Source of the DNA: an uncultured Chloroflexia bacterium
GTDB taxonomy: Bacteria > Chloroflexota > UBA6077 > JACCZL01
Direction: 5' to 3'
DNA: 64,000 nt
NCBI GenBank assembly: GCA_963765765.1
Contig: CAVXYC010000019.1
Coordinates: forward strand, 224,001 to 288,000
Shown: piece after piece, positions 4,347 to 48,813 of the stretch
Layout: the number at the start of each line of letters is the position of its first letter
Numbering within the stretch: position 1 is the first letter of the stretch
Made by a program: the position numbers and the translations under genes
The notes under the pieces: model-generated
The model's input: the letters and a program-made list of their open reading frames with translations, nothing else
Database searches by the model: none
Told to the model about the DNA's origin: nothing

Positions 4347-4386
4347 TCCCCCACGACTTTTGCTGTGGATTGCGCGAGCAGAACGG

Positions 4387-4512: not shown

Positions 4513-4546
4513 TCGTCTTTCTTGGAGTCCCGTCATTACGCGATCG

Positions 4547-6502: not shown

Positions 6503-6636
6503 CCAGAGGTCAGAGCAGAGGCTAGAGGTCGGGGGCATGCGAGGACCTCTCAGCAGCCCTAGACACGGATGAAGGAACAACCGCTACCGCTGGCAGGTAC
6601 GGCTGGTCCAACGGCCCGTATGACATATGGACCGGG

Positions 6637-7017
6637 CTAGCCGGAGAGGCGGTCATGCTCCACTAGCCAGCGGGCGAAGGCGAGGTGTTGTTCGTCCGCG
6701 GGTGTTTCGTCGCTTTCTGGTGAGAGCTCTATCTCGGGCAGGCTTGCTGTTCGCGGTGAGTCCCAATCAGACTCGGATGCGCTGACTGTCATCGAATCGA
6801 CGTCGTCTGCCGGGCGATCAAGCGTCAGCGTGCGTTGGGTGCCGACGCTCGCGGCAGTGACGGGTTCGGGCTGGCGTTCGCCGGACAGGTACGTGAACAG
6901 GATGGCCAGAGCGAACTCCGCCAGGATGACAACCACAACGGCCAACAGTGCGAGCTGCAGCGCGTTAGCGATGGTGAATAGCTCGGATCCGGATTGAGCT
7001 GTGTCACTCGAGTACAT
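6637..7017 (-). CDS. Hypothetical single-pass membrane protein with acidic tail
   Basis: Hydrophobic stretch at aa ~14-45; AAGGAG RBS. Confidence 0.5.
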   Translation of the reverse strand: MYSSDTAQSGSELFTIANALQLALLAVVVVILAEFALAILFTYLSGERQPEPVTAASVGTQRTLTLDRPADDVDSMTVSASESDWDSPRTASLPEIELSPESDETPADEQHLAFARWLVEHDRLSG

Positions 7018-7106
7018 GGAGTATCTCCTTCACTCCGTGCGTTACGCGGAGGCCCGGATACGACCGGTGGCGGGTAGAAGGCTGGAATCTGCGGCGGGGC
7101 CTTGGT

Positions 7107-8349: not shown

Positions 8350-8478
8350 AAATATCATCACGTCTTGTCAGTCGTCTGCTGACTTAGTCTATCTTCATGA
8401 GAGTGCAGCGAAGGATCTTCGCCGCTGATCCTCAGGACTCCGGTGGGAAGATCCTTCGCTGCACTCAGGATGACAGGG
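8302..8478. repeat. REP-like palindrome, GTCATCCTGAG family (left arm apparently interrupted)
   Basis: gagtgcagcgaaggatcttc ... gaagatccttcgctgcactcaggatgacaggg; the matching tgtcatcctgag lies at 8302-8313. Confidence 0.7.
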
Positions 8479-8524
8479 AAACAAGTGGCAGACAAGCCTG
8501 CCAGCGGGTCTCGTGTGCTGGCGT

Positions 8525-9214
8525 CTACCGCTCCAACAGCGCCGTGACTTCGATCTCCACTAACTTGCCCTCTGTGGAGTAGCCGTCGGCAAAGGCGTAC
8601 TCACTCTCCTTGGGCTGGCCTGGGAGAGCTGATGTGAGGGCGGAGCGCAGATCATCCAATGATTGGCTGCGATGCACGATGGCGGAAAGCTTGGTTACTT
8701 GATCCCACCGGACGTCGGCGTGTGATAGCGCGCTGGCGACATTGCCGAGGATCTCGGCCACTTGATCACGAAGATCGGGCAGGACGGAGGTCATCCCGGA
8801 GAGCGCAACCAGGCCGTCACGCTTCAGGTAGCGGAGAGGGACGATGGGCGGATCGTATTCCACCAGGGCCTTCTTGCTGCCGGGTGTAGTGGGGCGCATG
8901 GCCCAGAGCTGGATGGCGATGGCGGCTTCGGACTCGAAGAAGTCGGGCGCGATAAAGCTGGAGCTGGCGGAACGGGCAGCACCGCTGAGGATGGCTACTC
9001 TCGCCTTGCTGCCGACATCACGGCTGGCTCGGTCACGCGCCCACAGACGCGTGCGAATAGTGTCGTCAAGCGAGAGGCTCAGACCACGCAGCGCCCCGTC
9101 GAGTCGCTCGAAGATGTCCCGAGTCTGCTCAGCGGGATCCAGCGCGGCGCGTCCCTCGGCGCTGAGCGCAACGATCTCATGTCCGCGCCAGGAACTCACT
9201 GTCATTCGCATCAT
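8525..9214 (-). CDS. Tandem-domain RidA/YjgF-like protein
   Basis: Two YjgF-like halves (QTRDIFERLDGAL...; LSGMT...DQVAEILGNV...LVEIEVTA). Confidence 0.7.
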   Translation of the reverse strand: MMRMTVSSWRGHEIVALSAEGRAALDPAEQTRDIFERLDGALRGLSLSLDDTIRTRLWARDRASRDVGSKARVAILSGAARSASSSFIAPDFFESEAAIAIQLWAMRPTTPGSKKALVEYDPPIVPLRYLKRDGLVALSGMTSVLPDLRDQVAEILGNVASALSHADVRWDQVTKLSAIVHRSQSLDDLRSALTSALPGQPKESEYAFADGYSTEGKLVEIEVTALLER

Positions 9215-9417
9215 GGTCTCCTTACTGACGGGTGCTGGAGTCTAATGAATGTCGACATCATGGCGGTGCGCGAAGCACTGCTGTCGGCCGTCGAGCCGAA
9301 TCTTGGTGAGCCGTATGATATCCGCGGGCAGCGTCCGTTGTGGCAGGTATCCGGGTGAGTTTCCGAAACTGAAGCCGAACGGGCGCACCACCATACTCCA
9401 GCCCGCGGAGCGCGACC

Positions 9418-10002
9418 ATGACCGAGCCGAGCCGTAGCCCAACAACCTTCGATGAAGAGAGAGCAACTTCGGTATTGATGCTGGCATTCAGCGCAGACCC
9501 GGCCGTCCGCTGGGTATGGCCTGATCCGCGTCAGTACCTGGAAGACTTTCCGAGCTTCGCACGCGCGTTCGGAGGCAGCGCGTTTACCCAGGGCACTGCT
9601 TACTGTCTGCCCGGCTACGTCGGCGCCGCACTCTGGCTGCCGCCGGGGATTGGGCCGGACGAGGATGCGATAGTCGATCTCTTCAAGCGCAGCACCACTG
9701 AGAAGAGGCAGGCCGAGGTATTCGAGGTGTTGGAGCAAATGGGCCGCTACCATCCGACCGAGCCTCACTGGTATCTGCCGCTTATCGGCGTGGATCCGTC
9801 ACGCCAGGGCGAGGGACTGGGCGCGGAGCTAATGCGGCCGGTTCTGGCTACATGTGATCGCGATGGCCTGCCCGCGTATCTCGAATCTTCCAACGCGCGG
9901 AATGTTCCATTCTATGAGCGGCTGGGGTTTGAGGTGCTGGGAACGATTCAGTCGGGAGGATCGCCGGAGCTTTATCCGATGCTGCGGAAAGTGCGGGGGT
10001 AG
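9418..10002 (+). CDS. GNAT N-acetyltransferase (puromycin acetyltransferase-like)
   Basis: HWYLPLIGVDPSRQGEGLG, AYLESSNARNVPFYERLGF. Confidence 0.85.
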   Translation: MTEPSRSPTTFDEERATSVLMLAFSADPAVRWVWPDPRQYLEDFPSFARAFGGSAFTQGTAYCLPGYVGAALWLPPGIGPDEDAIVDLFKRSTTEKRQAEVFEVLEQMGRYHPTEPHWYLPLIGVDPSRQGEGLGAELMRPVLATCDRDGLPAYLESSNARNVPFYERLGFEVLGTIQSGGSPELYPMLRKVRG

Positions 10003-11420: not shown

Positions 11421-12948
11421 GTGATGACTGCCGATCAGGACAATCCTGCTGCTTCGATCATCCGCCGCTTTGGCGGGCAGTCGGCGTTGGCGGCGCTGCT
11501 GGGGCGGCGGCAGAGCACCGTGGAGCATTGGGCTCAGACCGGGCGCATTCCGGCGCAGTGGCAGCAACCGCTCATGTCGTTAGCACGAACGCGAGGTATC
11601 GTCTTGGAAGCAAAAGATTTCGCACCCACTCAGCCGCAGCCGATCAAGCCTGCCAACGGCAAGCTGGGCGTCCTGGTGGTGGGGCTGGGCGCGGTGGCGT
11701 CCACGTTCATCGCCGGGGTTGAGCTGGCGCGCCAGGGCAAGGGCCAGCTCGTGGGCTCGCTCACGCAGATGGGCACCATTCGGCTGGGCAAGCGGACCGA
11801 GCAGCGCTCGCCGTTGATCAAGCAGTTCGTGGACCTGGCCGGCCTGGACGATCTCGTCTTCGGCGCGTGGGACCCGTTTCGGGACAACGCGTACGAGGCA
11901 GCGCTCAAATGCGGCGTGCTGAACAAGTACGAGCACATCTACCCGATCCGCGAGTTCCTCGAGAGCATCGAGCCGATGCCGGCCGCGTTCGACCAGTTCT
12001 ACGTGAAGCGGCTGGACGGTCCGAACACGAAGAGCAAGAAGAACAAGCTCGAGGTGGCCGAGGCGATCCGCCAGGATATCCGCAACTTCAAAGAGAAGAA
12101 CAACTGCGATCGGTTGGTAATGATCTGGGCAGCCTCCACCGAGATCTTCATGGACGAGCACGAGGTTCACGCCACGCCGGAGAGTCTGCGCGCCGCCATG
12201 GAGGCGAACGACCCGAACATCCCCTCGTCCATGCTCTACGCCTACGCCGCGCTGATGGAGGGCGTGCCGTTTGCCAATGGCGCGCCGAACCTGACGGTGG
12301 ACGTGCCGGCGATGATGGAGCTTGCCAATTGAGAACGGCGTGCCGATCTGCGGCAAGGACTTCAAGACGGGTCAGACGCTGATCAAGACGGCCGTGGCGC
12401 CGATGCTGAAGGCCCGCATGCTGGGCGTGAAGGGCTGGTACTCCACCAACATTCTGGGCAATCGCGATGGCGAGGTGCTGGACGATCCCGAGAGCTTCAA
12501 GACGAAGGAAGAGTCCAAGCTGGGCGCGCTGGAGTACATCCTTCAGCCTGAGCTGTATGCCGAGCTCTACAACGATCTCTACCACAAGGTGCGGATCAAC
12601 TATTACCCGCCCCGCGGCGACGAGAAAGAGGGCTGGGACAACATCGACATCTTCGGGTGGCTGGGTTACCCAATGCAGATCAAGATCGATTTCCTGTGCC
12701 GGGACTCAATCCTGGCGGCGCCGCTGGTGCTGGATCTGGTGCTCTTCCAGGACCTGGCGCAGCGCGCGGGACTCAAGGGCATTCAGGAGTGGCTCAGCTT
12801 CTACTTCAAGAGCCCCCAGCACGCGCCCAAGGTGTACCCCGAGCACGATCTCTTCATTCAGCAGACCAAGCTGAAGAACACGCTCCGCTGGCTCATGGGC
12901 GAGGAGCAGATCACCCACCTGGGCATGGAGTACTACCAGGACGAGTAG
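11421..12948 (+). CDS. ino1: Myo-inositol-1-phosphate synthase with N-terminal Cro-like HTH (frameshift near 12325)
   Basis: GLGAVASTF, GSLTQMGTIRLG, NGAPN, GKDFKTGQT, STNILGNRDG, DFLCRDSILAAP, SFYFKSP; first ~66 aa IIRRFGGQSALAALLGRRQSTVEHWAQTGRIP look like a Cro HTH. Confidence 0.9.
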
Positions 12949-24732: not shown

Positions 24733-25095
24733 TTAGCGGTATGAGCCTCGCTGCTTGGAGAAGCAGTCTGAGCAATAAACGGGCTTGTCACCGCGCGGCT
24801 GGAAAGGCACGCGGGCTTCATTGCCACAGTCTGAGCATACGGCGGAGTACATCTGTCGCTCGGAGCGACCATATCCGCCGCCGCCACCACCACTGCTGTA
24901 GCCGCCAGAGCTATAGCCACCGGAGCTATAGCCACCGGTGTCGCCCCGGGAAGCCTTTCGGGCCGCACGACAATCGGGACATCGGGAGGGCTCGTTATTG
25001 AAGCCCTTCATCGCGTGGAACTCTTGTTCCCCGCTCGTGAATACAAATGCCTGTCCGCAATCGCGGCAGGAGAGGGTCTTGTCGGCGTAGGTCAC
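24733..25095 (-). CDS. Zinc-ribbon + CxxC-x17-CxxC domain protein with Gly-rich linker
   Basis: DKTLSCRDCGQAFVFTSGEQEF...PSRCPDCR, CSDCGNEARVPFQPRGDKPVYCSDCF; GTG start with AGGAG RBS. Confidence 0.9.
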   Translation of the reverse strand: MTYADKTLSCRDCGQAFVFTSGEQEFHAMKGFNNEPSRCPDCRAARKASRGDTGGYSSGGYSSGGYSSGGGGGGYGRSERQMYSAVCSDCGNEARVPFQPRGDKPVYCSDCFSKQRGSYR

Positions 25096-25531
25096 GCTGA
25101 CTCCTATACGTGGGCTTGGTGGTTCCGTCAGCGCGAGTCTACACGGGGAACAGGAGCGGCCAATGGTTGCCGCGGCGTAATCCCGACCAGTTGGCCGTCC
25201 TGCGAAACTATCCAGCGGTACAAGTATACGCGATAACCACCAAGTTTTCATGCAACCTTCATGCAAAGTTGCCCGGAATCTTGTCCAGATGGCGGGTATT
25301 GGCCTAGAAATGGCATTCGAGCGGTTCAAAAGCTAGTCTCGGTAGGTCATCGGTCAGTACGCTTCTCACCATATTTACGCGGCTCCGCGGTGTGAGCCCC
25401 GCGCCTGGACAGCCTCAGAGACGGCACGTAAGCTGCTCAACGCGCCGCTTCCGCGACCGTCGCGATGTGAGATTCGGCCTCAGTTCAATCGTATGCGAGC
25501 ACATAATCCGTCACGGAAGCAGGAGGATAGG

Positions 25532-25841: not shown

Positions 25842-26648
25842 ATGAGCGGTATCGCCAACGTCGCGACTCAATTTCGGTTGGACGGGAAGTGTGCCCTGGT
25901 GACGGGCGCTTCCCGCGGGATAGGCCGTGGCATTGCGCTGGGGCTGGCGGAAGCCGGAGCGGACATTGCTCTGATCAGTCGCGACCGCGATGCGCTGGAG
26001 TCAAGCGCGTTGGCGGTGCGTGCCCTCGACAGACGCGCCGTTGTGCTCCCGACGGATATGTCTCGAATCGACGAAGTACGAAAGCTTCCTGATCGAGTTG
26101 AGCGTGAGCTTGGGTCCGTTGATATTCTCGTGAATGTGGCCGGTTTCAATCGCAAAACGCCGGCGCTGGAGATGACCGAGGAATCCTGGGACGATGTGCT
26201 GACAGTGAATTTACGCTCGGTCTTCTTCCTGTGCCAGGGCGTGGCGCGCCGTTGGATTGAACGAAAACGGTTTTCCGCGGAGGCTGGGGCTTCCAAGGGG
26301 AAGATCGTGAGTATCGGCAGCCTTGCGGGGGCCATCGGCTTTCCCGGCCAGGCCCAGTATGCTGCCTCCAAGGCCGGCCTGGTTGCCATGTCGCGGGTGC
26401 TCTCGTCAGAGTGGTCTCCGCATGGCATCAACGTGAACGTTGTTGCGCCGGGCTATATCGATACTGAATTGACGGCTCCAATCTGGAGAGACCACGAGCG
26501 CTCCGCCCGCGTGATGAGCCGGACGCCGGCGGGGCGTCCGGGACAAGTCTCTGAGATCGTTGGCACTGTCGTCTATCTCGCCTCGCCCGCCAGCGACTTC
26601 GTTAGCGGGCAGACGATTTTCGTGGATGGTGGCTTCCAGGCCGGCTAG
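25842..26648 (+). CDS. SDR oxidoreductase (KduD/gluconate 5-dehydrogenase-like)
   Basis: TGASRGIG, YAASK, NVVAPGYIDT, VDGG. Confidence 0.9.
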   Translation: MSGIANVATQFRLDGKCALVTGASRGIGRGIALGLAEAGADIALISRDRDALESSALAVRALDRRAVVLPTDMSRIDEVRKLPDRVERELGSVDILVNVAGFNRKTPALEMTEESWDDVLTVNLRSVFFLCQGVARRWIERKRFSAEAGASKGKIVSIGSLAGAIGFPGQAQYAASKAGLVAMSRVLSSEWSPHGINVNVVAPGYIDTELTAPIWRDHERSARVMSRTPAGRPGQVSEIVGTVVYLASPASDFVSGQTIFVDGGFQAG

Positions 26649-27558
26649 GTGACTTCATCTTGAAACCGCAGCGTGGTGGTCTTCAAATCCTCACCGAGCT
26701 CAGTACCAGGGAAGATAGCTGTAGCCGTGGGTAAGTGATCCGCGGGACGCGAGATGGAAGCCGAATAGTGGGTGAGCCAGAGTCGGCGGGCGGACGATCT
26801 GCGGGCCAGCTCAGCCGCCTCGCTGAAAAGCATGTGTCGTCTTTCACGCGCCTTTGGCCGATCGATCTCCTGAGCGTAGTTTGCTTCGCAGATCATCAGA
26901 TCGACATCTCGAGCAAAGTCCACGATCGAATCGATTGGGTTGGTGTCAGTGATGAAGGCGAAACTTAAGCCGCGGCGGTACGAGCCCAGCACGTCGTCTG
27001 GCGCAATGGTCCGATTGCCGATGCGAACCTCCCGACCATGCTGCAGCTCCTTCCAGTGAGCCACTGGAATGCCAAGGGCCGATGCCCGTTCCGGCAGAAA
27101 TGGCCGCGCACGCTCCACACCGAACCGGTAGCCGATACATGGGACGCTGTGCTCCAACGGAAGCACGCCCACAGAAAGCTCGCCAACGCGGAATTCCGCC
27201 GGGGCCCGGACCTCGTGAACTTTCACGGTGAATGGCAGATACGGGGCGATGGAGAGAAGCGCACGCACGACGCGTCGGATACCAGGAGGCCCATAGATAT
27301 CCACGGGCTCGTCCCGGCCGCGTTGCCCAACGTCAACAGGAGCCCAGGGAGTCCTCCCACGTGGTCCCCGTGGAAGTGCGTGATGAGGATCGTGCCGAGC
27401 GCACGAAATCCCCAGCCTAGCCGCCGCATTGAGACCTGCGTCCCCTCACCGCAGTCGATAAGTGAAAGGTGGCCGTTGACTCGGAACAGAAGCGCGCTGA
27501 GGGCTCGCTCAGGCAGGGGCATTGCGCCACCGCTGCCTAGAAGACAGAGATCGATCAT
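26645..27558 (-). CDS. rnz: Ribonuclease Z (frameshift near 27310)
   Basis: [23 protein letters not shown], exosite LGIP...WKELQHG, TDT, THYS. Confidence 0.9.
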
Positions 27559-27613
27559 TCGGCAGGAGCAATGCGGACAAACAACGTAAATCTGCCTTAA
27601 ACTTCGCACAACG

Positions 27614-27994
27614 ATGGCTGGCAAAGGAGCATACGCGCAGGACTTCGATAGGGAGCAAGTCGACCTCCAAACGCGCCGTAACGTCGAGGCACTCGCGCTC
27701 GAGGGTGAAGGGCGAACGGAAGAAGCAATCGCGCTCTACGAACAGAATATCGCTGATGGCTTTGAAGGTGATTGGCCCTACGGGCGCCTGGTCGCTTATT
27801 ACGAGCGACTCGGCCGACTGGATGATGCACAGCGAGTGCTCGAGCGCGGCATCGAAGTGTTCAATGCGTCGAAGCGTCGAACGCCGTTAGATCGTCGATC
27901 TGTGCTGCGCGCTTTCAAGGGGCGGCTCAAGCTCGTGTTGAAGCGAATGCGAGACGAAGCCAAAGCAGGGGCTCTCAAATCTCGGTCTGATTAA
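27614..27994 (+). CDS. TPR-like protein
   Basis: [15 protein letters not shown]...[26 protein letters not shown]. Confidence 0.7.
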
Positions 27995-28030: not shown

Positions 28031-28279
28031 CTAGCGTGCCGCGCCAGCCACCCCGGCTAACAAGATCACAACGCATGACCCCACAATCGACAGGGCAAGC
28101 GGCACTGCGCCGAGTAACTGCGCACCTGCAACCACGACGATGATCGATGCCGCCGCCCAGATACCGACGCTTCTCAGAACGAGTGTGCGGCGTCGACCCA
28201 GCCAACGCTGCTTCAGACTCAAAACCATCGCAAGTGCCGTGATCGCAACGCTCAGGGCCATGAAGACGATTGCCTGCAT
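28031..28279 (-). CDS. Small three-helix membrane protein downstream of the ABC exporter
   Basis: Three hydrophobic segments; co-oriented with, and 62 bp after, the ABC gene. Confidence 0.45.
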   Translation of the reverse strand: MQAIVFMALSVAITALAMVLSLKQRWLGRRRTLVLRSVGIWAAASIIVVVAGAQLLGAVPLALSIVGSCVVILLAGVAGAAR

Positions 28280-28341: not shown

Positions 28342-31076
28342 TCACGGTGTTCTTTCCGGAGTCCTGGCTTCGCGATCGGGATCCATTTCGGACGAACTCT
28401 GTGAGTCGTGGCCATTGGTCATCGCTGCGATGATGATCTGATTCTGATCGTCGAATAACTTTCGATAGACGCCACCATTCACCATCAGCTCGGCGTGCGT
28501 GCCCGACTCGGCAATCTCGCCACGATCCACCACGTAGATGCGGTCGGCGCGCATGGCCAGCGCAAGTCGATGGGTGATGCTAATGACAGTCTTATCACGA
28601 GTGACCTCGTCAAGCTCCTCCAGAATCTCCCGTTCCGTCTCGGCATCCAGGGCGCTAGTCGCCTCATCCAGGATGAGGATCGACGGATTGCGCAGGAGCG
28701 CTCGAGCCACGGCGATGCGTTGGCGCTGTCCACCCGAGAGCCGAGAGCCCCGCTCACCTACGAGCGTGTGGTAGCCGGATGGCAATGACATGATGAATTC
28801 ATGGATGCGGGCGCGCTTCGCCGCGGTGATGATCTCCTCGTCCGTCGCGCCCAGTTTCCCGAGACCGATGTTCTCGCGGATGGTCATGTTGAACAGGAAG
28901 GTGTCCTGGGAGACGAGACCGATCTCAGCACGGAGCGCGTGAAGCGCAATGTTTGTCGTGGGCACGCCGTCGATCCGGATCACGCCTTCTGTCGGGTCGT
29001 AAAAACGTGGAACCATGTTGACCAGGGTTGACTTTCCAGCACCGGTAGGACCGACAAATGCCACGCTGTCGCCGGCCGGTATCTCGAGGCTGACATTGCG
29101 CAAGATCTGGTCGGCACCGTTGTACGAAAACCAGACGCCGTCGAATTGGACCGTTGACGACCCTTGCCAATTCGGCCGAATGGGAGCGCGCTCCGGAGTC
29201 TCATCAAGGGGCTCGACCTCGAACTTCAGAACTTCCTCAACGCGTTGGAGGACCGCGGCCGAGAGCGCAACATACCGATAGATGTTAAGAAGCGAGTGCA
29301 TCCGGGAGATGCCACGCGTCGTTTGAGTGACGAATGCCAGGATTGTTCCGACGGTGATAATTCCGAACACCGCGAGGATCCCACCGACGAGGTAGACGAG
29401 CTTTCCAAAGAACTGGTCCACCAATTGCAGCGTCTCGGCGAAGAGTCCGGTGTAGAAGTCCGACCGGATCTCAACCCTTCTGGAGTGCTCAATTCCCGGC
29501 TCGGATCGGCGACGCAGGAATCGTTGGAGGTTGCCAATTTGAATCAGCGGGTGAGCATCCACCATCTGCTTGAGGTCTGCGTTGAGCTGGGCCAATCGTT
29601 CCTGCCGTGCGCGAGTCGCGCGCTGGAGTTTTGGTCCGAGCCACGCCGCAATCGCAATGTAGAGGGGTGAGGCGAACACGAGCACAAGTGTCAACTGCCA
29701 GGAAAGTAGGAACATTGCCCAGATGACCGCGATGAGGAAGGTAATGTGATAGATGCTGTACGAAACGATCTGAGTCATAGGGTCCGCGAGTCGCACAAGA
29801 TCGCTCAAAAATCGCGCTTGGAGATCACCTGTGGATGTGCGATTGAAGTTCGTTGCGCTCAGCCCATTGACTCGGTCGAGGTACCGTAGGCGAAAGTCCC
29901 GCAAGACGTTCTGGCCCAGGACGTTGACGTAATAAACCAAGAGAATCTGGGTACCCGCTGCGAGAAGATTTGCTCCCAGCAACGCGAGAACCAGGCGGAT
30001 GATTCGCGCCGTCTTGATGAGACGAAGCTCATCTGGGTCTTGACCGAGGAAGTGTGCAACCCCCTCCATCGCAAATCCCAAACCTGTCCAGGGTTCCTGA
30101 GTGATAGCGGGTGCATCTGGCTGCAACGCGATCGTATCGGTGATGTCCCGTATAAGAAACGGCGAGAACTGGGCAACAAAGCTGGTGACGAAGACCAGCG
30201 CCATGCACCAGGTCACTAGCTTGGGATATGGGCGGAAGTATGGTAGCGATCGTTTCAGAAAATTGAGCCAGCCAACGGTCTTCCGCCCAGTGCCCAGCTT
30301 GAGCTGAAATTCGATCCACTCAACCGTAAGACCTTCGATGTACTTGCCATAGGCCACCGCTGATGCGTAAGAGATGTCACCGCCAGCTGTTTCCCGGATG
30401 AACTCGACGCATGGCTTTGGGCCCATCGCGCGTCAGGAGATAGTCGCCAAACGATTCCGCGATGGGCCAGTAGGAGTCTTCGGTCGGTGCGTGCTGCAGG
30501 ACCACCGATCAGGCAGTCGTAGACTGGTAGCTTCCAGTCGTTCTCCCGGCCGATCTCGCGGCAGATGTCGTCCGCTCGCTGAACCTCGATAGGCCGACTG
30601 GAGAATGGCAGCCCGGGTTCGACTCGCGCGGCAATCGCTCGCGCGATGCCGCCGATGAGGAAGTCGAGCCCCTTGGGCTGGGTGAGTGCTACGGCACGTG
30701 CTGAGACATCAGCAGTCGTGCCCTCACTCTGGATCCGATACAGGATGACTCGCGCGATCTCCCGTGCAAGACCGTAGGCAGGAACGTCTCGTGTGAGTAC
30801 AACGTTCACTTCGCCGTCAATTGGATCGCTGGACGCTTCATCGGAGCCGTCCGGCTGCGACTCGCGGCAGATAATCCGGATTGGAGCTGGTTGAGTGGCC
30901 AGCCTGGACTTAAGCTGGAGCTGCTTTAGAACGGCTGAAAGCACCTGCCGGGCATGCTGCCCGAACTGCTGCCGTACACTCTCCGCGTGGGATCCCGGGA
31001 GGTAGGCGACCTCGAGATCCTTGTACTGTTCAGTCCGATAACCGGCGGGAAGCCCCCTACCACTGGATCCGTTCAC
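28342..31076 (-). CDS. ABC exporter (TMD + canonical NBD) with N-terminal peptidase-MA-like domain; frameshifts near 30410-30480
   Basis: NBD motifs GPTGAGKST, LSGGQRQR, ILDEATSALD, THRL; a third frame bridges the two ORFs (YWPIAESFGDYLLTRDGP); GTG start with AAGGA RBS. Confidence 0.85.
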
Positions 31077-31144
31077 GAGGTCCTTTCAGCGCAAGCGTCG
31101 CCGCGTGCGAGTGCCACGAGCCGATAATACCGATAGGAATACGT

Positions 31145-31182
31145 CCATGCAATCGATTCCATGGTGACAGTAACGCTGTCAC
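31145..31182. promoter_or_regulatory. Two abutting palindromes in the divergent ABC intergenic region
   Basis: CCATG-C-AATCGATT-C-CATGG (31145-31164) and GTGACAG-TAACG-CTGTCAC (31164-31182). Confidence 0.45.
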
Positions 31183-31288
31183 GTACGATTGTCCTCCATA
31201 TTGGTGATGGTTGCTCTCTCGTGCAACAATGAGCGTCCACAACGATGCTGACGTGATGACCGTGAAGGACACCGAGAAAGGAGGCTCC

Positions 31289-34223
31289 ATGAGTGATGAC
31301 GACTTAGTAACGCGCACGGATGGGCCTCTGGTATTCCATGTGCGGCCTGGGTCCTACGCTGAGGAGCGATTGGGTGGCTTGTCGGCGGCCTTCGTCGCCG
31401 CGGCAGCGCGCATCGCGGAACACTTCGGCAAACATTCCTCTGATCTGAATCCCATCCATCTCTGTTTCGTGGACGTTCCTCACTCGCACGAGGAGAGCTC
31501 CGACCCGGCGGGCACTGTCTACTGCTTGCAGATCAACTCCGAATCACCTGGCCAGCCGGCGGAGATTGTGCTCACGCCGATCGTGGCTGACCAGCTCGTC
31601 GGACCAGGACACCCGTTTGGGCGATTCTGGATCGATGGCCTGGCTGGCTATCTCGCCGCTCAAGCCGGATCCACCGAATACGCTGAGATGCCGGCCAGGG
31701 TCAACAGGATGAGGGAAGAGGGCCAGCTCCAGTCGGTGCTGGAATATATCCGTCAGCGCGCTGAGCGCCGGTCTCCTTTGGCATCCTATGTGGCCTCGGC
31801 CTTCGTCACGTATCTCATCACCTGGCGTGGCCCCGAACGATTTCAACGGCTCCTGCTCGAGGCGCGGAAGGGGAATCCCGATGCGTTTCGCAGCGCCTAT
31901 CGTCCCCCGCTGCAGGTTGTGGAAGGACAGTGGCTGCGCAAGCTAGAGGCGGCCAACCAGACAGGCGGCGGGTCGATGATTGACGCTGTACGACGAGTTG
32001 ATCCCGTACTTCACCCCCTATGCCAGTACGCTGAGCTGGGTCATGCTCACAATCGTTCTAGGGCTCTCGTTCGATCTTTTCGTGCCATTTGCATTTCGCT
32101 TCTTGATCGATCAGATTTTGACCCGGCGACCATTGCCGTTCCCAATACCCGGTATTGGCAACGCCGGCGAGCAGATTGCCGTCGACGAACGAATGCAAAC
32201 GCTCTTTGTGCTTCTTGGCGCAATGGTGTTCATGTTCATCATCAACACGATTGCCCGGATCCGTCAGACGTACCTCGTGGCAACGGTCAGTCAGAGCGTG
32301 AACCTCGAGCTACGCCGCCGTTTCTTCGAGCACATGCAGCGCTTGCCGGTGACGTTCCACGCACGCACCGCGGCCACTGACATTAGCCAGCGTTTCTTTA
32401 CCGATATCGCCTACGTTCCGGCGTCGCTGTCCACGGGGCTTGTTCCGTTGCTCAGCAACGGTCTGGCGATGCTCCTTTTCGGTTTCTCGATGCTCTCAAC
32501 CAATCTCATTCTCGCCGGGATCGCGATTGCCGGATTACCCCTCTTTGCTTTTTCAGCGAGGACCGGGCGCGTCACTACGCGCGAGCTGCAGCGGGAGGGC
32601 TCACGACGTGTCAGTGAGATTCAGCAGTCGCTCTTCGAGAACCTCGCGGGCCAGAGATTTCTTCGCTTCTGGAATGCTCGTGCAGGCCACCGTGAATCGC
32701 TTCGAGGAAAAGCTCCAGATCAATCGCGATCTCAACGTCCGAACCACCCTAGTCACTTCCACATTTGCTCGAGCGACCATGCTCATCACGAATGCAGCGC
32801 AGGTGGCCATTCTCATCACTGGCGGCGCCATCGTCATACTTTCCAATGGTCAGGACCTCACCGCGGGAGCACTGACGGCCTTTTATCTCCTTTTGCTCCG
32901 TCTCTATGGTCCAGCGGGCCAATTTGCAGGTGCTACACAATCGCTGACGCAGGGCGCTGACGGCCTGAATCGACTGCGACGCATCTTCGATCAGAAGCCC
33001 GAGGAGGAGCCGGTCGAAGCGGTCGTCCTGGGGCCGTTGCAGAAGAGCATCGAGCTAAAGGACGTGGGACTGAGTCAGAGCGGTGGCAAAGTCGTGCTAC
33101 GGCGACTCTCGGCTGTCATCCCAGCGGGCAAGAAGATCGCTTTTGTCGGTCCAACTGGATCTGGGAAGGCCAATCTCATCACGCTCTTTCCGCGTCTGGA
33201 GAGTGCTACATCCGGTCAGGTCCTCTGGGATGGGTTGGATACCGCGCTGGTGACGCGGGATTCGCTCCGGTCTCAACTGACGGTGCTTACGCAGGATACC
33301 TTCGTCTTGAATGCCACGATCTACGAGAACATACGAATTACCAAGCCCGATGCTACCGAAGACGAAGTACTGCGCGCCTCAAATGACGCCGGGCTTCACG
33401 AGTTCGTCAACGGACTCCCAGGCGCCTACGATACGGTTACGAGCGATCGCGATCCGACATTGTCTGCTCCATTGCGGCAGCGGCTGAGTGTGGCAGGGCG
33501 TTATTGCGCGACTGCTCTGTAATTCTTATGGACGACGCGCTCTCCGCCCTCGATCCTCCTACTCAGAGAGAGCTGGAGCTAAAGCTGCGCGCGCATGCAT
33601 CATCCGGCACCCTCATTGTTGTTGCCCAGCGGCTTGGGAGCATCGAGGATGCAGACAACATCTATGTGATGGACGATGGTCAGGTTGTCGAGTCGGGCAC
33701 GCATTATGAGCTCCTTGACGCGCCCGGGCTTTACGTCCAGCTTCTCAAGGATGAGCTGGGTGAGGCCGCGGTAAGTGGCGCGCGCCAGGCTATGCGCCGA
33801 TTGAGCAAGCTGGCGCCATTCTCCAGTCTGCCGCCCGAAGTCATTGAGGAGACATCTGATCTTCTGCTTTTCATGGAGCGGTTGCCCGGTCAGGACATCG
33901 TGCGGGAGGGAAGCCTGGGCGATGAGCTCTTCATTATCGGGCGTGGCGAGGTGGAGATCGTCGTCCACGATGAGGACGGGGATGAGCAGATCGTTGCGAC
34001 GCTGGGTGAGGGCGATTACTTCGGGGAGATCAGCTTCCTCCGCAGAACGGCCCGAACTGCCACCGTGCGAGCTCGAACGCCCACCGAGCTTCACGTGCTC
34101 CGTCGTGTGGACTTCGACTTGTTGCTCAACCGGCTGGGCGAGGGCACCCTGGAGCACATGGAAGAAACCGCTCGCGCTCGGCTCGAGGACACGCGCTCAA
34201 AGCTAGCGGCGCTTTCAGCGTAG
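31289..34223 (+). CDS. ABC exporter with N-terminal peptidase-MA-like domain, TMD, degenerate NBD and C-terminal cNMP-binding domain; frameshifts near 31990, 32670 and 33500
   Basis: FWIDGLAGYL, SAFVTYLITWRGPERF; NBD GPTGSGKAN, LSAPLRQRL, LMDDALSALD, AQRL; cNMP cassette GDYFGEISFLRRTARTATV; AAGGAGG RBS. Confidence 0.85.
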
Positions 34224-35102: not shown

Positions 35103-35191
35103 AGCGAGAAAACTCCGAATCGAATTCATTCATCACAAGTGCCGGATCGCGGTTGATGGAGGATTGCCGTAGTTCAAAGTACAATCGGTCC

Positions 35192-35416
35192 ATGAGCTGG
35201 GAGGATCGAATCACTGTTACGCCAGGCGTGCGCAGCGGGAAACCCTGCATCCGCGGAACACGCATAACGGTGTACGACGTACTCGAGTATCTCGCAAGTG
35301 GAATGTCCGAAAGCGAGATTCTCCGTGATTTCCCCGATTTGACTCAGCATGATATTCGGGCGGTGCTCGGATTCGCCGCCGCGCGTGAGCGGCGAGTAGC
35401 TTCTCCTGCGATGTGA
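35192..35416 (+). CDS. DUF433 antitoxin
   Basis: ITVTPGVRSGKPCIRGTRITVYDVLEYLASGMS; TACAAT 6 nt upstream of ATG. Confidence 0.9.
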   Translation: MSWEDRITVTPGVRSGKPCIRGTRITVYDVLEYLASGMSESEILRDFPDLTQHDIRAVLGFAAARERRVASPAM

Positions 35417-35763
35417 GGCTGCTCTTTGATGAGAACTTAAGCTATCGACTAATTTCCATCCTGACCGCTGAATATCCCGAGAGTGCGCACGTCAGAGACC
35501 TTGGCCTAAAGGGTGCGGCCGATCAGTCGATTTGGCAATTCGCACGCGACAACGGTTACGCCGTTGTGTCCAAGGACTCGGACTTTCGTGATCAAAGCTT
35601 TGTCACCGGCCATCCTCCCAAAGTGATCTGGCTGGATGTTGGCAATGTCAGCACCACAGTAATCATTAATATCCTCCGGTCCCACCTCGAGCTCGTCAAT
35701 CAATTCGAAGTCGCCGAGCAAGAATCACTGCTGATTCTGTCTTTGCATGACGATTCCATCTGA
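35413..35763 (+). CDS. DUF5615 PIN-like toxin
   Basis: LLFDENLS, ADQSIWQFA, VSKDSDF; GTGA overlap with the DUF433 gene. Confidence 0.9.
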   Translation: MRLLFDENLSYRLISILTAEYPESAHVRDLGLKGAADQSIWQFARDNGYAVVSKDSDFRDQSFVTGHPPKVIWLDVGNVSTTVIINILRSHLELVNQFEVAEQESLLILSLHDDSI

Positions 35764-40393: not shown

Positions 40394-40693
40394 ATCCCCT
40401 CTACCGCTTCATGACCGCGTTGCATCGCCAGCGCGTCCGCTGTGGTTCCGAAGGAATCGTCTAACTCTTCTCTTCGCCAATCCATAGGTGCATGATCTTA
40501 GCGGGCATTGGCCGCGTTTTGGAACGGAGCGCCGTCGAAATGCGATTCAAGCCTACGGCAATAGAAAACCCTACCCGTTCCCGTGGCGCTTCGCGCTCTC
40601 GTTTGGCCTGAATGGTTGCCGGACCGGTCATGCGAGGTAATACTGGGAGCAGATCAGGCAATGGCACAACCCCCGGTACCTGGGAGGTCATCC

Positions 40694-42433
40694 ATGTTGC
40701 TCAGGCGGATGCGCGGCGGACTCGTTCGATCGGCCCAAGTTGCGTCTGTGGTGGTTTTGATGGTTGGGTGCGCGGCGCCCGGAGCACCACCGTCCACCGC
40801 GCCAACGGCGGCCCCGCCGCCCAAGGAGCAGCCCGCCGTCCCGACTGTGGTTCCAGCGCCAACGGTCGCCGCGGCCCAGGCACAACCGTCCCTGTCGCGA
40901 TTGGTCATGGCGGTGGCTCCTCCGGGACGCGAGTCGAACGACGTCCGCTTCACCGGTAACACTGACCTGTGGGCACTCCGCCCGATGTACGAGTTCCTCA
41001 TCGGCCTAGATCCCAAGACGGGCAAGTACATTCCGCAGCTCGCCACCGAGTGGCAGCTTGACGAGGCCGGCCCATCGGCTCGATTCAAGCTACGCAAGGG
41101 TGTGCAGTTCCATGGGGGAAACGGTGAGTTTACCGCCAAAGACGTCGTGTTTACCCGCGAGCAGATGCGCAAGGATGACGTCATCAACGGCTGGCGTACG
41201 TTCTTCGACTCAGCGATCAAGGACATCGAAGTCGTCAATGACTACGAGGTCGTTTTCCATCTCTCGCGAGCAGATCCCAACTTGCTCGACATTATCTGCG
41301 GAAGCCGAAAACGGGTTTGAGATCCGAAGCGCGGCGCACTTCGACAAGATAGGGCCTCCCACCATGGAAAGTGGCCCACTGGCCGGGACGGGTGCCTATC
41401 AGTTCAAGGAGCGTGCTCAGGCACAGTACATTCGGTTTGAGCGCGTGCCATATCAGCATTGGCGAGCCCAGCCCGAGTTCCCTGAGTTCGAGTTCCGTTT
41501 CCAGCGCGAGGCGTCCACTCGTCTGGCCGCGCTGCAGGCCGGCGAAGTCCACATCACCACCTTACCGGCGGACCTACAACGCGATGCCGAGCGTCGAGGC
41601 TTCCCGGTCATCAGCAGTCAGGCTCCAGGCCTGCGCACTTTCATGCGTTACTACTGCTGCATCATGAAGGATCCCAAGAATCCAGACGCTGGCTGGGAGT
41701 ATCCGGATAGCCCGTTGATGGACGTACGTGTCCGCAAGGCGCTCAACAAGGCCATCAACCGCGACGAGCTGAACAAGGCGCTGTTCGACGGTAAGGGCGA
41801 GCCGATGTACGTCACTCAGCACCATCAAACTCGCCTGGGCTGGGACCCCTCGTGGGTGCAGCGCTGGCCAGACGAATACGGCTACGATCCCGCCGCTGCC
41901 CGCGCGCTGCTTGCCGAGGCGGGCTTTACAGCCGGCAAGCCGATGACCACGAACATCGTTTGTCGACGCCGATGGCCTCCATTGGTCAGGCACAGGATGT
42001 TCAAGAAGCCGTGGCCGGATACTGGCGTGCTGTAGGTGCCCAGGTGGAGCTACTGTCCACAGATCCGACAGAGATCGCCAACAACACACGCGTCCGTAAG
42101 TACAGCAACCACGTCCAGATGTGGGCAAACGCTTCGGCGATGTTCACGGGCTTCACCGGCCTGTTCCTCACCTGGGGCGGACGCGGCAATGGCTTCGAGG
42201 ACTTCGACGTCGATCGCTACGTCCTCGAAGCGGTCAGCACCTTTGACGAGAAGAAGCAGGACGAGGCCTGGCGCAAGGCCGGCGAGGTGCACTTCGCCAA
42301 GCACGCCGCGGTCCCGCTCTTCTGGCTCCCGGCCGAGGCCGTTATCAACCCGCGGGTGGTGTCAGAGTACACGTACCCTGGCAACGTTACCGGGACGTGG
42401 ACGCACGTGTACACGGCGAAGGCCGCGAAGTAG
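40694..42433 (+). CDS. ABC substrate-binding lipoprotein, family 5 (frameshifts near 41295 and 41960)
   Basis: Lipobox MVGC, PQLATEW, FKLRKGVQFH, GTGAY, DVRVRKALNKAINR, YDPAAARALLAEAG. Confidence 0.85.
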
Positions 42434-43780: not shown

Positions 43781-45067
43781 TCATCGAGACGATGGCTCCA
43801 GACGGGGGTCGAATCGCTCACGGTATTCAGCGCTTGCTTCCCACCAGTCGACGTTTCGAGGCAGGATGACCTCCCCTGAGCGCACGCGATAGACCGTGGG
43901 ATTGTCCACACCAGGTGGGATCACGCCGCGCTCCTCGAACGCGCGGGCGGCCTCAATAAGTCGTCGGCGGGTGCGGATAATGAGCACGTCTGAAGTTCCG
44001 AGGCGTTCCCTGGTTCGATCGTAGATCGCCCCCATGCTCTCGGTCACTGCCACGTCCTGCTGGCGTATACCAGGGATGCCCGTATAGCTCTTCCAGGTGC
44101 GCTGGGCTTCGCGATCCAGGAGGTAGTCGTTGCTGACGTTCTGCTCGATGTTCCATCGACCGTAGCGGCTGTTCGTGTTCGGCAGCCAATTTGCGCTGGG
44201 ATCGCCGGTGCGGGCGGTCGCGTCCTGCATGGAGACGTAGCACTCCCATTGCAGCATGTGCTCGTCGTCAATCGGGACGTAGGCGTTGAGCTTCGCTTCG
44301 CTGCCCATCGTGCCGGTTGGCTGCATCGCGTAGAACGGAAACAGATAGTGACCGATGCGCCAGTAGTGGCTATCGTCCTCGGCCGGCCGGTAGGCGCCAT
44401 AGGACGTGCCCCACTCCGTCTCCAGGACCGAGAAGCGCGGCGCCCGCTGCTTGTAGTGGTAGTAACCAAAGCTGCCGGGCTCATACTCGTCAGGCTGGTT
44501 CGCTCCGCCGTGCAGAAACGCGGCGTGAACTGTATCCATCTCCCCTTCCCAGCCCTGCATCCAGTTGCAGGCTCGAGAGATGATGCGGATCTTCGTGGGA
44601 TCACTGTTTGCTAGCGTCGCTTCGAGGTCGGGTAGTGGCGGAGGGACGGACCGCGGCCCCATGTATGCCCAGATGATCCCATTTCGCTCCTTCGCGGCGT
44701 AGGCCGTAACCTTGACCTTGTGTTTGAAGTTTGACTCTGGCGGCTCATTCGGCATGTCCACGCAGGCGCCCGAGGTGTCGAACTTCCAGCCGTGATAGAC
44801 GCAGCGCAGGCCTTCCTCCTCATTGCGTCCGAAGAAAAGCGATGCGCCGCGGTGCGGGCAGTTCTCTGCAACGATGCCCACCTCGCCCGAGGATGATCTG
44901 AACCCGACGAGGTCCTCACCCAGGAGCCGAAGTCGAATCGGTGGGCAGTCGGGCGCAGGAAGCTCGTCTGATCGGATCGCGGGAATCCAGTACTGCCGCA
45001 TCATCCGACCCATTGGGGTGCCGGGGCCTATACGACAGAGGTACTCGTTGGCCTCATGACTCAGCAT
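43781..45067 (-). CDS. Rieske oxygenase alpha subunit (phthalate 4,5-dioxygenase/LigXa-like)
   Basis: CPHRG...CVYHGW Rieske motif; EGEMDTVHAAFLH and QDVAV mononuclear Fe site. Confidence 0.9.
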   Translation of the reverse strand: MLSHEANEYLCRIGPGTPMGRMMRQYWIPAIRSDELPAPDCPPIRLRLLGEDLVGFRSSSGEVGIVAENCPHRGASLFFGRNEEEGLRCVYHGWKFDTSGACVDMPNEPPESNFKHKVKVTAYAAKERNGIIWAYMGPRSVPPPLPDLEATLANSDPTKIRIISRACNWMQGWEGEMDTVHAAFLHGGANQPDEYEPGSFGYYHYKQRAPRFSVLETEWGTSYGAYRPAEDDSHYWRIGHYLFPFYAMQPTGTMGSEAKLNAYVPIDDEHMLQWECYVSMQDATARTGDPSANWLPNTNSRYGRWNIEQNVSNDYLLDREAQRTWKSYTGIPGIRQQDVAVTESMGAIYDRTRERLGTSDVLIIRTRRRLIEAARAFEERGVIPPGVDNPTVYRVRSGEVILPRNVDWWEASAEYRERFDPRLEPSSR

Positions 45068-47466: not shown

Positions 47467-48813
47467 ATGCTCAGCCGCGAGAACAACGAGATGCTGACCC
47501 GGGTGGGGCCTGGTACACCCATGGGCGAGGTGCTCCGACAGTATTGGCACCCGTTCCTCTATCCCGATGAGCTCAAACCGGACGGCGCCCCTCTGCGTAT
47601 CCGACTGCTGGGCGAGGACCTGGTGGCGTTCCGCACCGCGTCGGGCGATGTCGGGTTGATTCAGAACAACTGCCCACATCGCGGCGCCAGCATGTTCTTC
47701 GGCCGCAACGAGGAAGAAGGCCTGCGTTGCGTCTATCACGGCTGGAAATTCAACGTCGCGGGCGATTGTGTGGACATGCCCAACGAGCCGCCAGAGTCTA
47801 ATTTCAAGCACAAGGTGCGGGTCACCGCCTATCCGTGCGTGGAGCGCGGCGGCATGATCTGGACCTATATGGGCCCCGAGAACCCGGCTCCTGCCATTCC
47901 CGACCTCGAGTTCCTGAATGTGAACGACGATCAGCGCTTCTACTGGAAGCGGGTCCAGACGTGTAACTGGGTCCAGGCCATGGAAGGCGACATCGACCAG
48001 AGTCACAACTCGTTTCTCCACACGTGGCTGGATTCGGCCATCGACACGACCAGTCGAAGTCGAATCACTCAGATTCGCGATCGTGACAAGAGTCCGCACT
48101 TTGAAGTGGTCGAAACAGACTACGGCGTCTGCGTAGCTGCGCGGCGGAACGCCGAACCCGATACTTACTACGTGCGGCTCACCCAATTCCTGATGCCCTA
48201 CCACACTATGACCGGACCGTACGGTGAGAATCCCATGCGCACCTGGCGGGGCTGGGTGCCGATTGACGATGAGAACACCCTCGTCCACGGCGTGAACTTT
48301 CACCCACTGCGTCGGCTGAACGAGCACGAGCGTGGTGGCAACAACCTGCGTGCGCCGGGGCCAAATGGATACCGAGTGCGAGGAAACGTGTTCTACGTGG
48401 AGCCCGAGGATCGCGCGCCGGCCACGAGCCAGCCTTTTGGCGCGTGGTATCCGCTGGACAGCCTGGAGAACGATCTACGGGTCAATCGCGACGTCCAGAA
48501 AAAGCTGACGTTTTCGGGCATCCCGGTCTTCTGGGCCCAGGACGGCGGCACGCAGCTCACCATGGGCAAGATCTACGACCGCACGAAGGAGCATCTCGGC
48601 ACCACCGACCTGGGCATCATCGGCACCCGCAAGAAGCTTCTCAATGCCGCGAAAGCTCTCCAGGAACGCGGAGAGACTCCGCCCGGCGTGCGCAATCCCG
48701 AGTGGTATCAAGTCCGTGGCGCGGCCATCGAGATCAAACGAAGTCAAAATTGGTACGAGGCTTCCGAAGAGACGCGGAAGGTGATTCCCGGCGTAAATCA
48801 AGCGGGGGTGTAG
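47467..48813 (+). CDS. Rieske oxygenase alpha subunit (phthalate 4,5-dioxygenase/LigXa-like)
   Basis: CPHRG...CVYHGW; EGDIDQSHNSFLH; AQDG; EHLGTTD. Confidence 0.9.
   Translation: MLSRENNEMLTRVGPGTPMGEVLRQYWHPFLYPDELKPDGAPLRIRLLGEDLVAFRTASGDVGLIQNNCPHRGASMFFGRNEEEGLRCVYHGWKFNVAGDCVDMPNEPPESNFKHKVRVTAYPCVERGGMIWTYMGPENPAPAIPDLEFLNVNDDQRFYWKRVQTCNWVQAMEGDIDQSHNSFLHTWLDSAIDTTSRSRITQIRDRDKSPHFEVVETDYGVCVAARRNAEPDTYYVRLTQFLMPYHTMTGPYGENPMRTWRGWVPIDDENTLVHGVNFHPLRRLNEHERGGNNLRAPGPNGYRVRGNVFYVEPEDRAPATSQPFGAWYPLDSLENDLRVNRDVQKKLTFSGIPVFWAQDGGTQLTMGKIYDRTKEHLGTTDLGIIGTRKKLLNAAKALQERGETPPGVRNPEWYQVRGAAIEIKRSQNWYEASEETRKVIPGVNQAGV

Follow-up and report, generated by a model that had tools for sequence, protein, structure and literature searches.

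Two divergent ABC half-transporter genes with zincin-like head domains lacking the HExxH motif, one with a C-terminal cNMP-binding domain, in an uncultured Chloroflexia bacterium

Positions 28342-34223 of the DNA stretch analysed here, 64,000 nucleotides (nt) from an uncultured Chloroflexia bacterium (contig CAVXYC010000019.1, positions 224,001 to 288,000; hereafter the window), carry two divergent paralogous genes with start codons 212 nt apart. Both genes have the build of type IV (ABCB-like) ATP-binding cassette (ABC) half-transporters, in which a six-helix ABC_membrane domain is followed by ABC_tran in one chain, and in both this core is preceded by a soluble head domain; the plus-strand gene, in addition, ends in a domain of the cyclic nucleoside monophosphate (cNMP)-binding family. 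Our best explanation, which taken as a whole we regard as probable, if only by a little, is that both genes belong to an uncharacterised family of such half-transporters that occurs almost only in Chloroflexota. As judged from structural models and alignments, the heads are cytoplasmic gluzincin-type (Peptidase_MA_2-like) domains in which the HExxH zinc site has been lost. The minus-strand protein, with its fully canonical ATPase motifs, should be an ATP-driven exporter, by default a homodimer, and the plus-strand protein is predicted to be a cyclic-nucleotide sensor on an exporter scaffold that probably binds ATP and would not hydrolyse it.

In the window both genes are spread over several frames, and an initial annotation of this DNA had joined the pieces into chains of head, transmembrane domain (TMD) and nucleotide-binding domain (NBD). 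This reading is borne out by intact relatives of ~900-1030 aa, each encoded in a single open reading frame (ORF); that the heads are separate genes is ruled out by the same single-ORF orthologues. According to Pfam, the minus gene contains ABC_membrane (6.4e-33) and ABC_tran (2.8e-34), and the pieces of the plus gene contain ABC_membrane (8.7e-17), ABC_tran (7.4e-14) and cNMP_binding (4.7e-22; 78.2 bits, cut-off 27.5). With the 694-aa ORF of the minus gene as query, a word-indexed search returned ~45 intact proteins of 874-1032 aa which are 45-85% identical to that ORF and which, where named, are designated only 'ABC transporter' from Chloroflexota; at least 240 residues stand ahead of the elbow motif (regular expression L/W-P-Y/W-x-R/K-P-Y) in 38 of the 51 proteins P0005-P0055. 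An exhaustive phmmer search of 1.84 billion representatives with the plus head gave 24 clusters at E<=1e-3, 12 of them at E<=1e-10; these clusters include cNMP-tailed full-length proteins (955-999 aa) and a single protein of 1586 aa. The latter, P0124, is a plus-type protein fused, or mis-called as fused, to a 620-aa N-terminal part; the idea that this part is a nucleotide cyclase was discarded, as Pfam shows only Polyketide_cyc2 and DUF5939. Among the GTDB species genomes, the pattern RFWx[DE]G[LV][AG]G[YH] marked 30 candidate stretches, eight of which were confirmed, based on a six-sequence head alignment. All eight loci (L001-L008) lie in Chloroflexota metagenome-assembled genomes and have the plus-type gene in one frame, that of L005 being cut by the contig end. 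One partial relative, P0139, is labelled Polyangiaceae.

The full-length AlphaFold2 (AF2) model of the plus-type orthologue in L001 (976 aa, pLDDT 82.7) comprises the head (residues 1-222), six long transmembrane helices (229-565), the NBD (585-822), a linker helix (824-838), a cNMP beta roll (848-948) and a C-terminal helix (950-975). Foldseek matched this model to TM287/288, MsRv1273c/72c, MsbA, Sav1866, TmrAB, HlyB and PCAT1 (E ~1e-33), with target-normalised TM-scores (TMt) of 0.8-0.87 for TM287/288, MsbA and Sav1866. No listed NCBIfam family reaches its cut-off, the best being MsbA (TIGR02203) with 306 bits for the L001 plus-type protein and 380 bits for P0005, against a required 602. Likewise, no paper in the searched literature, with subscription journals lying outside its range, describes a zincin-like head or a C-terminal cNMP domain on an ABC exporter, so that the architecture, which the initial annotation did not recognise, indeed corresponds to no named family found here.

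The homology of the two heads, as initially proposed, was recovered by profile-profile comparison (hhalign, 99.6% probability, E 2e-24, 216 columns). The minus-strand translations contain LEVAYLPGSHAE, LAREIAR, FLIGGIARAIAA, ESFGDYLLTRDGP, AYGKYIEGLTVEW and LPYFRPY, and the plus-strand translations LVFHVRPGSYAE, FWIDGLAGYLAA, SAFVTYLITWRGP, AYRPPLQVVEGQW, IPYFTPY and FGEISFLRRTARTAT. Pfam returned no family at E<=1 for the window heads or for the relatives P0123, P0150 and P0155, and when the head sequence and a head profile were searched against PDB sequences, the head had no match, only the start of the TMD matching Sav1866 and MsbA. The AF2 model of the plus head (47-row alignment, pLDDT 92.2, pTM 0.89) consists, in order, of two beta hairpins and a helix, two strands, the helices 91-104 and 109-125, and a helical bundle. 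In Foldseek against the PDB, all 37 matches listed were M1 aminopeptidases or M9 collagenases, the M1 matches listed being IRAP, APN, APA, LTA4H, a cold aminopeptidase and a Deinococcus M1 enzyme. An ESM Atlas model of the head of P0005, an intact 909-aa orthologue of the minus gene, lay near Peptidase_MA_2 clusters (TM-score 0.64-0.71; PF13485 on 4 of 7 rows). The gluzincin/Peptidase_MA-like fold expected from the sequence was therefore what the structure searches returned. With Peptidase_MA_2 and clan MA(E) the heads share the order of the fold elements: the beta sheet at the N-terminus comes first, then the 'active-site' helix and the 'Glu' helix (xxEGxAxY), and last the C-terminal helical bundle, which contains SF..YL....G...F and YGK.L..LE.EW. 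The nearest live relative found, P0155 (head profile, E 1.1e-11), is a free-standing protein of 250 aa with HESNH followed ~20 residues on by FMNEGMA; hhalign related it to the plus heads with 98.5% (E 2.8e-15) and to the minus heads with 94.6% probability (E 6.5e-8), and in the Atlas PF13485 is assigned to 6 of its 30 nearest clusters (score 0.95). P0155 begins with a hydrophobic, lipoprotein-like N-terminus, whereas the heads are fused to a transporter and predicted to be cytoplasmic.

In contrast to the gluzincins, none of 63 heads (38 minus-type, 25 plus-type) contains HExxH, which extends the same claim made initially for the two heads of the window. Where the alignments place the HExxH helix, the plus head has AEIVLTPIVADQLV and the minus head GLAREIARVILYR, and the NEG position is occupied by I-D-G (FWIDGLAGY) and I-G-G, respectively. 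The window heads hence read REIAR...GG (minus) and EIVLT...DG (plus), with no His in the helix and with Gly or Asp in place of the third-ligand Glu. The proposed loss of this Glu holds for the window and not for the family: a large minus-type clade, in which the His pair is lost, keeps GEHLARVVLHR together with FFIEGAAR, and many of its heads read F-I-E-G. The head begins at residue 1 with no hydrophobic segment before it and is joined by a short Gly-rich linker to the elbow helix; as type IV exporters, by established topology (PMC8277102), have their N terminus in the cytoplasm, the head is placed there as well, at the position of the C39 or C39-like domain of other exporters.

The two genes differ most clearly in their NBDs. 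In a motif table of 24 rows, the minus gene reads GKST, LSGGQ, LDE and THRL, as a catalytically competent NBD does, and the plus gene reads GKA, LSAPL, D-D and Q, which does not amount to a competent one. Nine members form a degenerate clade (the plus gene of the window, L001-L004, L006, P0124, P0125 and P0127). LSGGQ is absent from all nine (LSAPL, LPAST, LATPH, LSTPQ, ISTPY, ISTPN, LTTAL, FSTPY or FGLVQ), the Walker B D-E is replaced in all nine (D-D in six, E-D in three), the H-loop His is Gln in all nine, and the canonical GK[ST] is absent from seven (GKA in six; P0124 has no Lys). The Walker A motif of P0124 is the most degenerate of the set. Fourteen other rows are canonical: both minus genes, L007, L008, P0132, P0133, P0136, P0137, P0146, P0005, P0017, P0045, P0047 and P0051. 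In a tree of the ABC core (41 rows, FastTree, Shimodaira-Hasegawa-like support) the degenerate clade is monophyletic with 100% support, and its sister, likewise with 100%, is a cNMP-bearing clade with canonical NBDs. Each ATP site takes Walker A, Walker B and H-loop from one NBD and the signature from the other, as set out in PMC7756269; given the plus-type defects, any dimer that contains a plus-type chain would thus be left without even one fully canonical site.

Within the degenerate clade, mean pairwise identity falls from 84% in the linker and 74% in the cNMP domain to 62% in the NBD, 58% in the TMD and 49% in the head; the minus-type clades have their best-conserved part in the NBD (80-84%). 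By these alignments, the plus-type NBD is not decaying despite its lost motifs. The cNMP tail matches the cyclic-nucleotide-binding (CNB) domains of PKG and PKA (E 1.9e-28 to 1e-22) with its GE...RTA cassette, FGEISFLRRTARTATVRA, aligned; it passes the PF00027 threshold and retains the G-E...R-[ST]-A pattern, so that ligand binding is predicted. The cassette is thus intact, as initially noted. In the sister clade with canonical NBDs (P0132, P0133, P0136, L007, L008) the situation is reversed, the G-E pair of the cNMP cassette being lost (e.g. FGVSSFL, VGDQSFL) and the identity of the cNMP domain being only 38%. It is because the hydrolysis motifs are lost while the cNMP domain is canonical and the linker best conserved that the plus protein is best explained as a cyclic-nucleotide sensor. 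The initial proposal that a cyclic nucleotide gates export overlooked that every hydrolysis motif of the plus NBD is degenerate and that this NBD cannot alone power export.

Comparison with known systems suggests how such proteins might work, cargo recognition and cNMP gating of export being, as distinct from the architecture and the dead zincin fold themselves, put forward by analogy with HlyB and HetC. PCAT1/ComA (peptidase-containing ABC transporters, PCATs) and HlyB-type exporters are, like the proteins described here, type IV half-transporters in which a cytoplasmic domain of peptidase fold immediately precedes the elbow helix and the first transmembrane helix, and the core fold of PCAT1 and HlyB is shared with the L001 plus-type model. 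PMC8277102 describes HlyB's C39-like domain (CLD) as a dead peptidase that tethers and chaperones the cargo. By analogy, the dead zincin head might dock a cytosolic peptide, protein or partner beside the transmembrane entry. Unlike in PCATs and HlyB, the heads are gluzincin-like and not C39-like, with no Peptidase_C39 match at E<=1 and only M1/M9 enzymes in Foldseek, and no leader-peptide, RTX, membrane-fusion or outer-membrane partner gene lies nearby in the window or in the eight loci. HetC of Nostoc PCC 7120 likewise combines a regulatory domain of cNMP-binding fold with a peptidase-fold domain on an ABC exporter; according to PMC10986499, its cNMP domain is required in vivo and binds ppGpp in vitro. 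In HetC the cNMP domain is N-terminal and occurs together with an active C39 peptidase and an active ATPase, whereas in the plus gene it is C-terminal to the NBD, has a PKA/PKG-like cassette and accompanies an NBD predicted to be ATPase-dead. Similarly to HetC, cNMP binding might be relayed through the conserved linker helix to NBD dimerisation or closure. In the lineage of the window, the plus protein may pair with its divergent canonical paralogue as a regulatory subunit; alternatively, it may act alone, without ATP turnover.

Several observations weigh against this explanation. The structural match of the plus head to gluzincins is moderate (query-normalised TM-score, TMq, 0.43-0.63; E 9.7e-4 for the best match to ~3e-2), and the heads as well as P0155 stay below the gathering threshold of PF13485 (Peptidase_MA_2), with no match to it at E<=1. 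The heads evolve fast, a phmmer search with the P0005 head having found only eight close relatives, which is as compatible with a module under loose constraint as with a specific receptor. Neither a ligand nor a cargo or partner for the head was identified in the window and the eight related loci, and no small-peptide, ribosomally synthesised and post-translationally modified peptide (RiPP), membrane-fusion or outer-membrane gene was found there (neighbours were annotated with Pfam on 45 of 98 locus ORFs, those flanking the ABC genes); the initial view of the head as a receptor for peptide or protein cargo draws on analogy, with no candidate cargo gene at any of these loci. The ABC-core tree is weakly supported at its deep nodes (43) and does not establish that the head fusion arose only once. 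The motif defects are not complementary, the minus chain being fully canonical and the plus chain degenerate in both site halves. In L003, L006, L007 and L008, the 10-kb flanks on both sides of the plus-type gene contain no second ABCB-type gene (tblastn, E<=1e-5); side by side, the two genes occur only in the window, in L001 and, probably, on the contig of P0007 and P0147. Finally, the frame breaks, six in 7.6 kb, are apparently denser than in the sampled parts of the window. Of the initial interpretation, the structural half is supported, and the functional half, which stands by analogy, is complicated by the degenerate plus NBD and the non-conserved pairing.

How far the pair is a unit bears directly on one tentative alternative, namely that the ATPase-dead, cNMP-sensing plus protein and the ATPase-competent minus protein form an obligate heterodimer in which a cyclic nucleotide controls export by the complex. 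Among the eight loci, only L001, a close relative, has the divergent pair (minus-type 2720-5440 on the minus strand, plus-type 5695-8622 on the plus strand), and, as in the window, the genes there flank an intergenic region (212 nt in the window) with a conserved palindromic stretch. Two further relatives, P0007 (96% identical) and P0147 (93% identical), are each listed on one contig of 28,281 nt and probably stem from a third, closely related genome with the pair on the same contig. The Walker B E-to-D and H-loop H-to-Q replacements are a hallmark of degenerate subunits of the TM287/288 type (PMC7756269) and are common to the plus gene and TM287/288, TmrAB and MsRv1273c/72c, the fold of which is also shared; a plus/plus dimer, moreover, would have no competent ATP site. 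However, in all four other loci with 10-kb flanks the plus-type gene stands alone, the upstream flanks of L002, L004 and L005 being too short to judge pairing, and the pair described initially is not a conserved unit. The conserved neighbours within the degenerate clade are ychF and a gene pair for an ECF sigma factor and a zf-HC2 protein rather than a partner transporter. In known heterodimers the defects are complementary between the chains and one site is intact; here the plus chain carries all of them and the minus chain none, its signature and Walker motifs being homodimer-like, and with a degenerate plus signature even the 'good' site of the heterodimer would be incomplete. The genes of known heterodimeric exporter pairs are usually co-transcribed, while these are divergent, with a canonical neighbour and an adjacency restricted to one lineage.

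A second alternative, which we consider equally doubtful, holds that the family exports a lipid or small molecule in an MsbA-like manner and that the head is regulatory or scaffolding and never contacts the substrate. The best core similarities in NCBIfam and the PDB are indeed to MsbA, Sav1866 and TM287/288, no locus contains a cargo-like gene, a membrane-fusion protein or a processing enzyme, and the residues invariant in both head types (G117, F172, L176, G181 and W215) form a hydrophobic/Gly core, with no shared surface motif. On the other hand, the core reaches no family cut-off, the MsbA scores above falling well below that required; the head sits directly before the elbow helix, which in PCAT and HlyB is the place of cargo docking; and every head subclade strongly conserves polar motifs of its own, for instance WRLPLYQ and DPNHSAE (minus type) or RFWxDGLAG (plus type).

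The frame breaks raise the question whether the genes are real. In tblastn, residues 1-192, 193-221 and 218-887 of P0005 fall on frames -3, -1 and -2 of the minus gene (31076->28342), and the plus gene (31289->34223) is divided into four pieces. When the DNA was aligned to the intact L001 copies, the net frame-breaking indels of the minus gene came to lie at ~30496 (+1) and ~30412 (+1), and those of the plus gene at ~32006 (+1), ~32681 (+1) and ~33495 (-1). The adjoining rnz-like metallo-beta-lactamase gene (26645-27624, minus strand) is likewise read as two ORFs, with a 1-nt deletion at ~27318 relative to its intact 305-aa L001 orthologue. It is unlikely, in our estimate, that both transporter genes and rnz are true pseudogenes, decaying and without function, as might be concluded from five frame-breaking indels within 5.9 kb, the sixth in rnz, a density above that of the sampled window parts, and from truncated copies in the closest relatives, P0007 (771 aa) and P0147 (479 aa). 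All six disruptions are 1-nt indels, with no larger deletion, and the ABC-gene pieces have no in-frame stop between the break points and keep high identity to their orthologues (85% to P0005, 96-97% to P0004 and P0007). Both ABC genes and rnz are intact in L001, orthologues at 72-96% identity are unbroken at the break sites of the window, and P0007 (96% identity) is uninterrupted across both sites of the minus gene. The truncated copies of P0007 and P0147 are broken at other positions, a pattern better predicted by random errors than by shared decay. The breaks are, moreover, not confined to the ABC genes: with Pfam on 31 hand-picked ORFs of the window, two unrelated housekeeping-type genes were found divided over successive ORFs, the myo-inositol-1-phosphate synthase gene ino1 (11421-12948, plus strand; NAD_binding_5 positions 1-237 and 238-321) and an SBP_bac_5 solute-binding gene (40583-42035, plus strand; profile positions 1-89 and 107-284). 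Thus, the five breaks in the ABC genes are most likely consensus errors of the assembly, the genes being real and probably intact to judge from their orthologues, and the initial call for polishing the assembly was well placed.

A further reading, which we regard as quite improbable, takes the plus-type clade not for a pump at all: it would be an ATPase-dead protein of ABC-exporter fold, switched in conformation by cAMP or cGMP binding to its highly conserved linker and CNB domain and not by ATP hydrolysis, and would act as a bacterial cyclic-nucleotide-gated channel, facilitator or membrane receptor. CFTR and SUR, which are repurposed ABC transporter scaffolds, are comparable in spirit. The dead zincin head would then be a partner- or ligand-binding face, and signalling might be directed to the ECF sigma/anti-sigma pair downstream, in four loci. 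Outside the lineage of the window, the degenerate clade has ychF upstream (L002, L003, L006) and an ECF sigma factor gene downstream (L002, L003, L004 and L006, with two genes intervening in L006), followed in L002, L003 and L004 by a zf-HC2 anti-sigma gene; these stretches span 105-5284 in L002, 8654-13879 in L003, 76-4150 in L004 and 8687-15668 in L006, and the order of ychF, plus-type gene and sigma factor gene may reflect a functional link or only lineage synteny. The idea that a non-canonical metal site keeps the heads active as metallopeptidases, such as the E-H...H and F-I-E-G of the large minus-type clade, in which Glu, two His and a second Glu are retained close to the former site, is very hard to sustain, since HExxH occurs in none of the 63 heads, the helix of the window heads (REIAR/GG and EIVLT/DG) has no His, the His pair of the large clade is 7 residues apart instead of i, i+4 as in zincins, and the candidate residues are not common to the subclades.

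Returning to the half-transporter family as the preferred explanation, the positions of its parts in the window and of the genes next to them are listed in Table 1.

Table 1. Positions of the two ABC genes, their parts and adjoining features in the window
Feature	Position	Strand	Remarks
Minus gene, head-TMD-NBD ABC half-transporter	28342..31076	-	canonical ATPase motifs; two +1 indels
Minus-gene head, gluzincin-like pseudo-peptidase (predicted)	30244..31076	-	~275 aa ahead of LPYFRPY elbow
Minus-gene stretch between two single-base insertions	30412..30496	-	insertions ~30496 and ~30412; gene shifted through three frames
Minus-gene ABC_membrane (type IV exporter transmembrane domain)	29323..30207	-	Pfam, residues 74-368 of 694-aa ORF
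Minus-gene ABC_tran NBD core	28654..29103	-	GPTGAGKST, LSGGQRQR, ILILDEATSALD, SITHRL
Divergent intergenic region	31077..31288	.	palindrome and stretch conserved in L001
Plus gene, head-TMD-degenerate NBD-linker-cNMP domain	31289..34223	+	indels ~32006, 32681, 33495
Plus-gene head	31289..31960	+	~224 aa; AF2 model, gluzincin-like fold
Plus-gene ABC_membrane	32043..32907	+	Pfam; spread over two frames
Plus-gene NBD	33097..33760	+	Walker A GPTGSGKAN, signature LSAPLRQR, Walker B VILMDDALSALD, H-loop VVAQRL
Plus-gene cNMP_binding domain	33885..34130	+	phosphate-binding cassette FGEISFLRRTARTATVRA
82-aa predicted three-helix membrane protein	28031..28279	-	directly downstream of minus gene
TPR protein, 126 aa	27614..27994	+	72% identical to L001 counterpart; syntenic neighbour, no shown link

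The minus-type gene of L001 is the orthologue of the minus gene, as is P0005 (85% identity), and the plus-type gene of L001 is that of the plus gene (73% nt identity). L001 shares the whole neighbourhood of the window, with an SDR gene, rnz, the TPR gene and the 82-aa gene, and then DLH, DUF2330, cupredoxin and phosphoenolpyruvate (PEP) mutase genes. The synteny with the TPR gene, the 82-aa gene and rnz, for which the initial annotation had proposed a search, is seen in L001, while the degenerate clade elsewhere has ychF and the ECF sigma factor gene instead. The counterpart of the 82-aa gene in L001 (2451-2699, minus strand) has the same length and a clearly similar sequence, and the gap between it and the minus-type gene is 63 nt in the window and 21 nt in L001; no Pfam or NCBIfam family was found for the 82-aa membrane protein, which may be an accessory subunit. 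A Shine-Dalgarno-like purine run precedes both starts and is kept in L001, that before the ATG of the plus gene being AAGGAGG in both. The intergenic region further contains the palindrome CCATGCAATCGATTCCATGG at 31145-31164, within the L001-conserved stretch CCGATAAT..CGATA..CATGCAAT.GATTC, and this palindrome may be a shared operator. A promoter and terminator scan gave no excess over expectation (promoter-like sites, 1 against 2.2 expected; terminator-like sites, 4 against 4.2).

Directly downstream of the plus-type gene, L001 has a gene for a LuxR-type response regulator (8684-9424, plus strand; Response_reg and GerE); this gene is absent from the window, where the plus gene is separated from DLH by 145 nt. 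Between DLH and DUF2330 the window contains a toxin-antitoxin-like DUF433/DUF5615 (PIN-like) pair (35153-35763, plus strand); as DLH and DUF2330 are adjacent in L001, this pair looks like an insertion in the lineage of the window. More distantly, a 198-aa protein (24733-25329, minus strand) carries treble-clef zinc fingers, zf_Tbcl and zf_Tbcl_2, with GGYSS repeats between them, and two Rieske/LigXa_C-type oxygenase genes (43781-45067, minus strand, and 47467-48813, plus strand) lie less than 4 kb apart next to a Meth_synt_2-like gene, an arrangement suggestive of a cluster for aromatic O-demethylation.

Accessory domains of peptidase fold or of cNMP-binding type are already known from ABC exporters, and the uncharacterised architecture described here is a variation on these. 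The family is abundant in Chloroflexota metagenome-assembled genomes, where it is annotated as generic 'ABC transporter', its head having no Pfam model. Accessory cytoplasmic domains on ABC exporters, such as those of PCATs, HlyB and HetC, are the way in which cargo selection and regulation are joined to a common motor, and the recruitment and inactivation of a second, unrelated peptidase fold, a zincin and not C39, at the same position would represent convergent domain recruitment. The plus-type clade is unusual in that its NBD has been conserved after losing the hydrolysis motifs, beside a canonical cyclic-nucleotide sensor. If plus-type proteins act alone, they would provide a natural test of the ABC exporter fold without ATP turnover.

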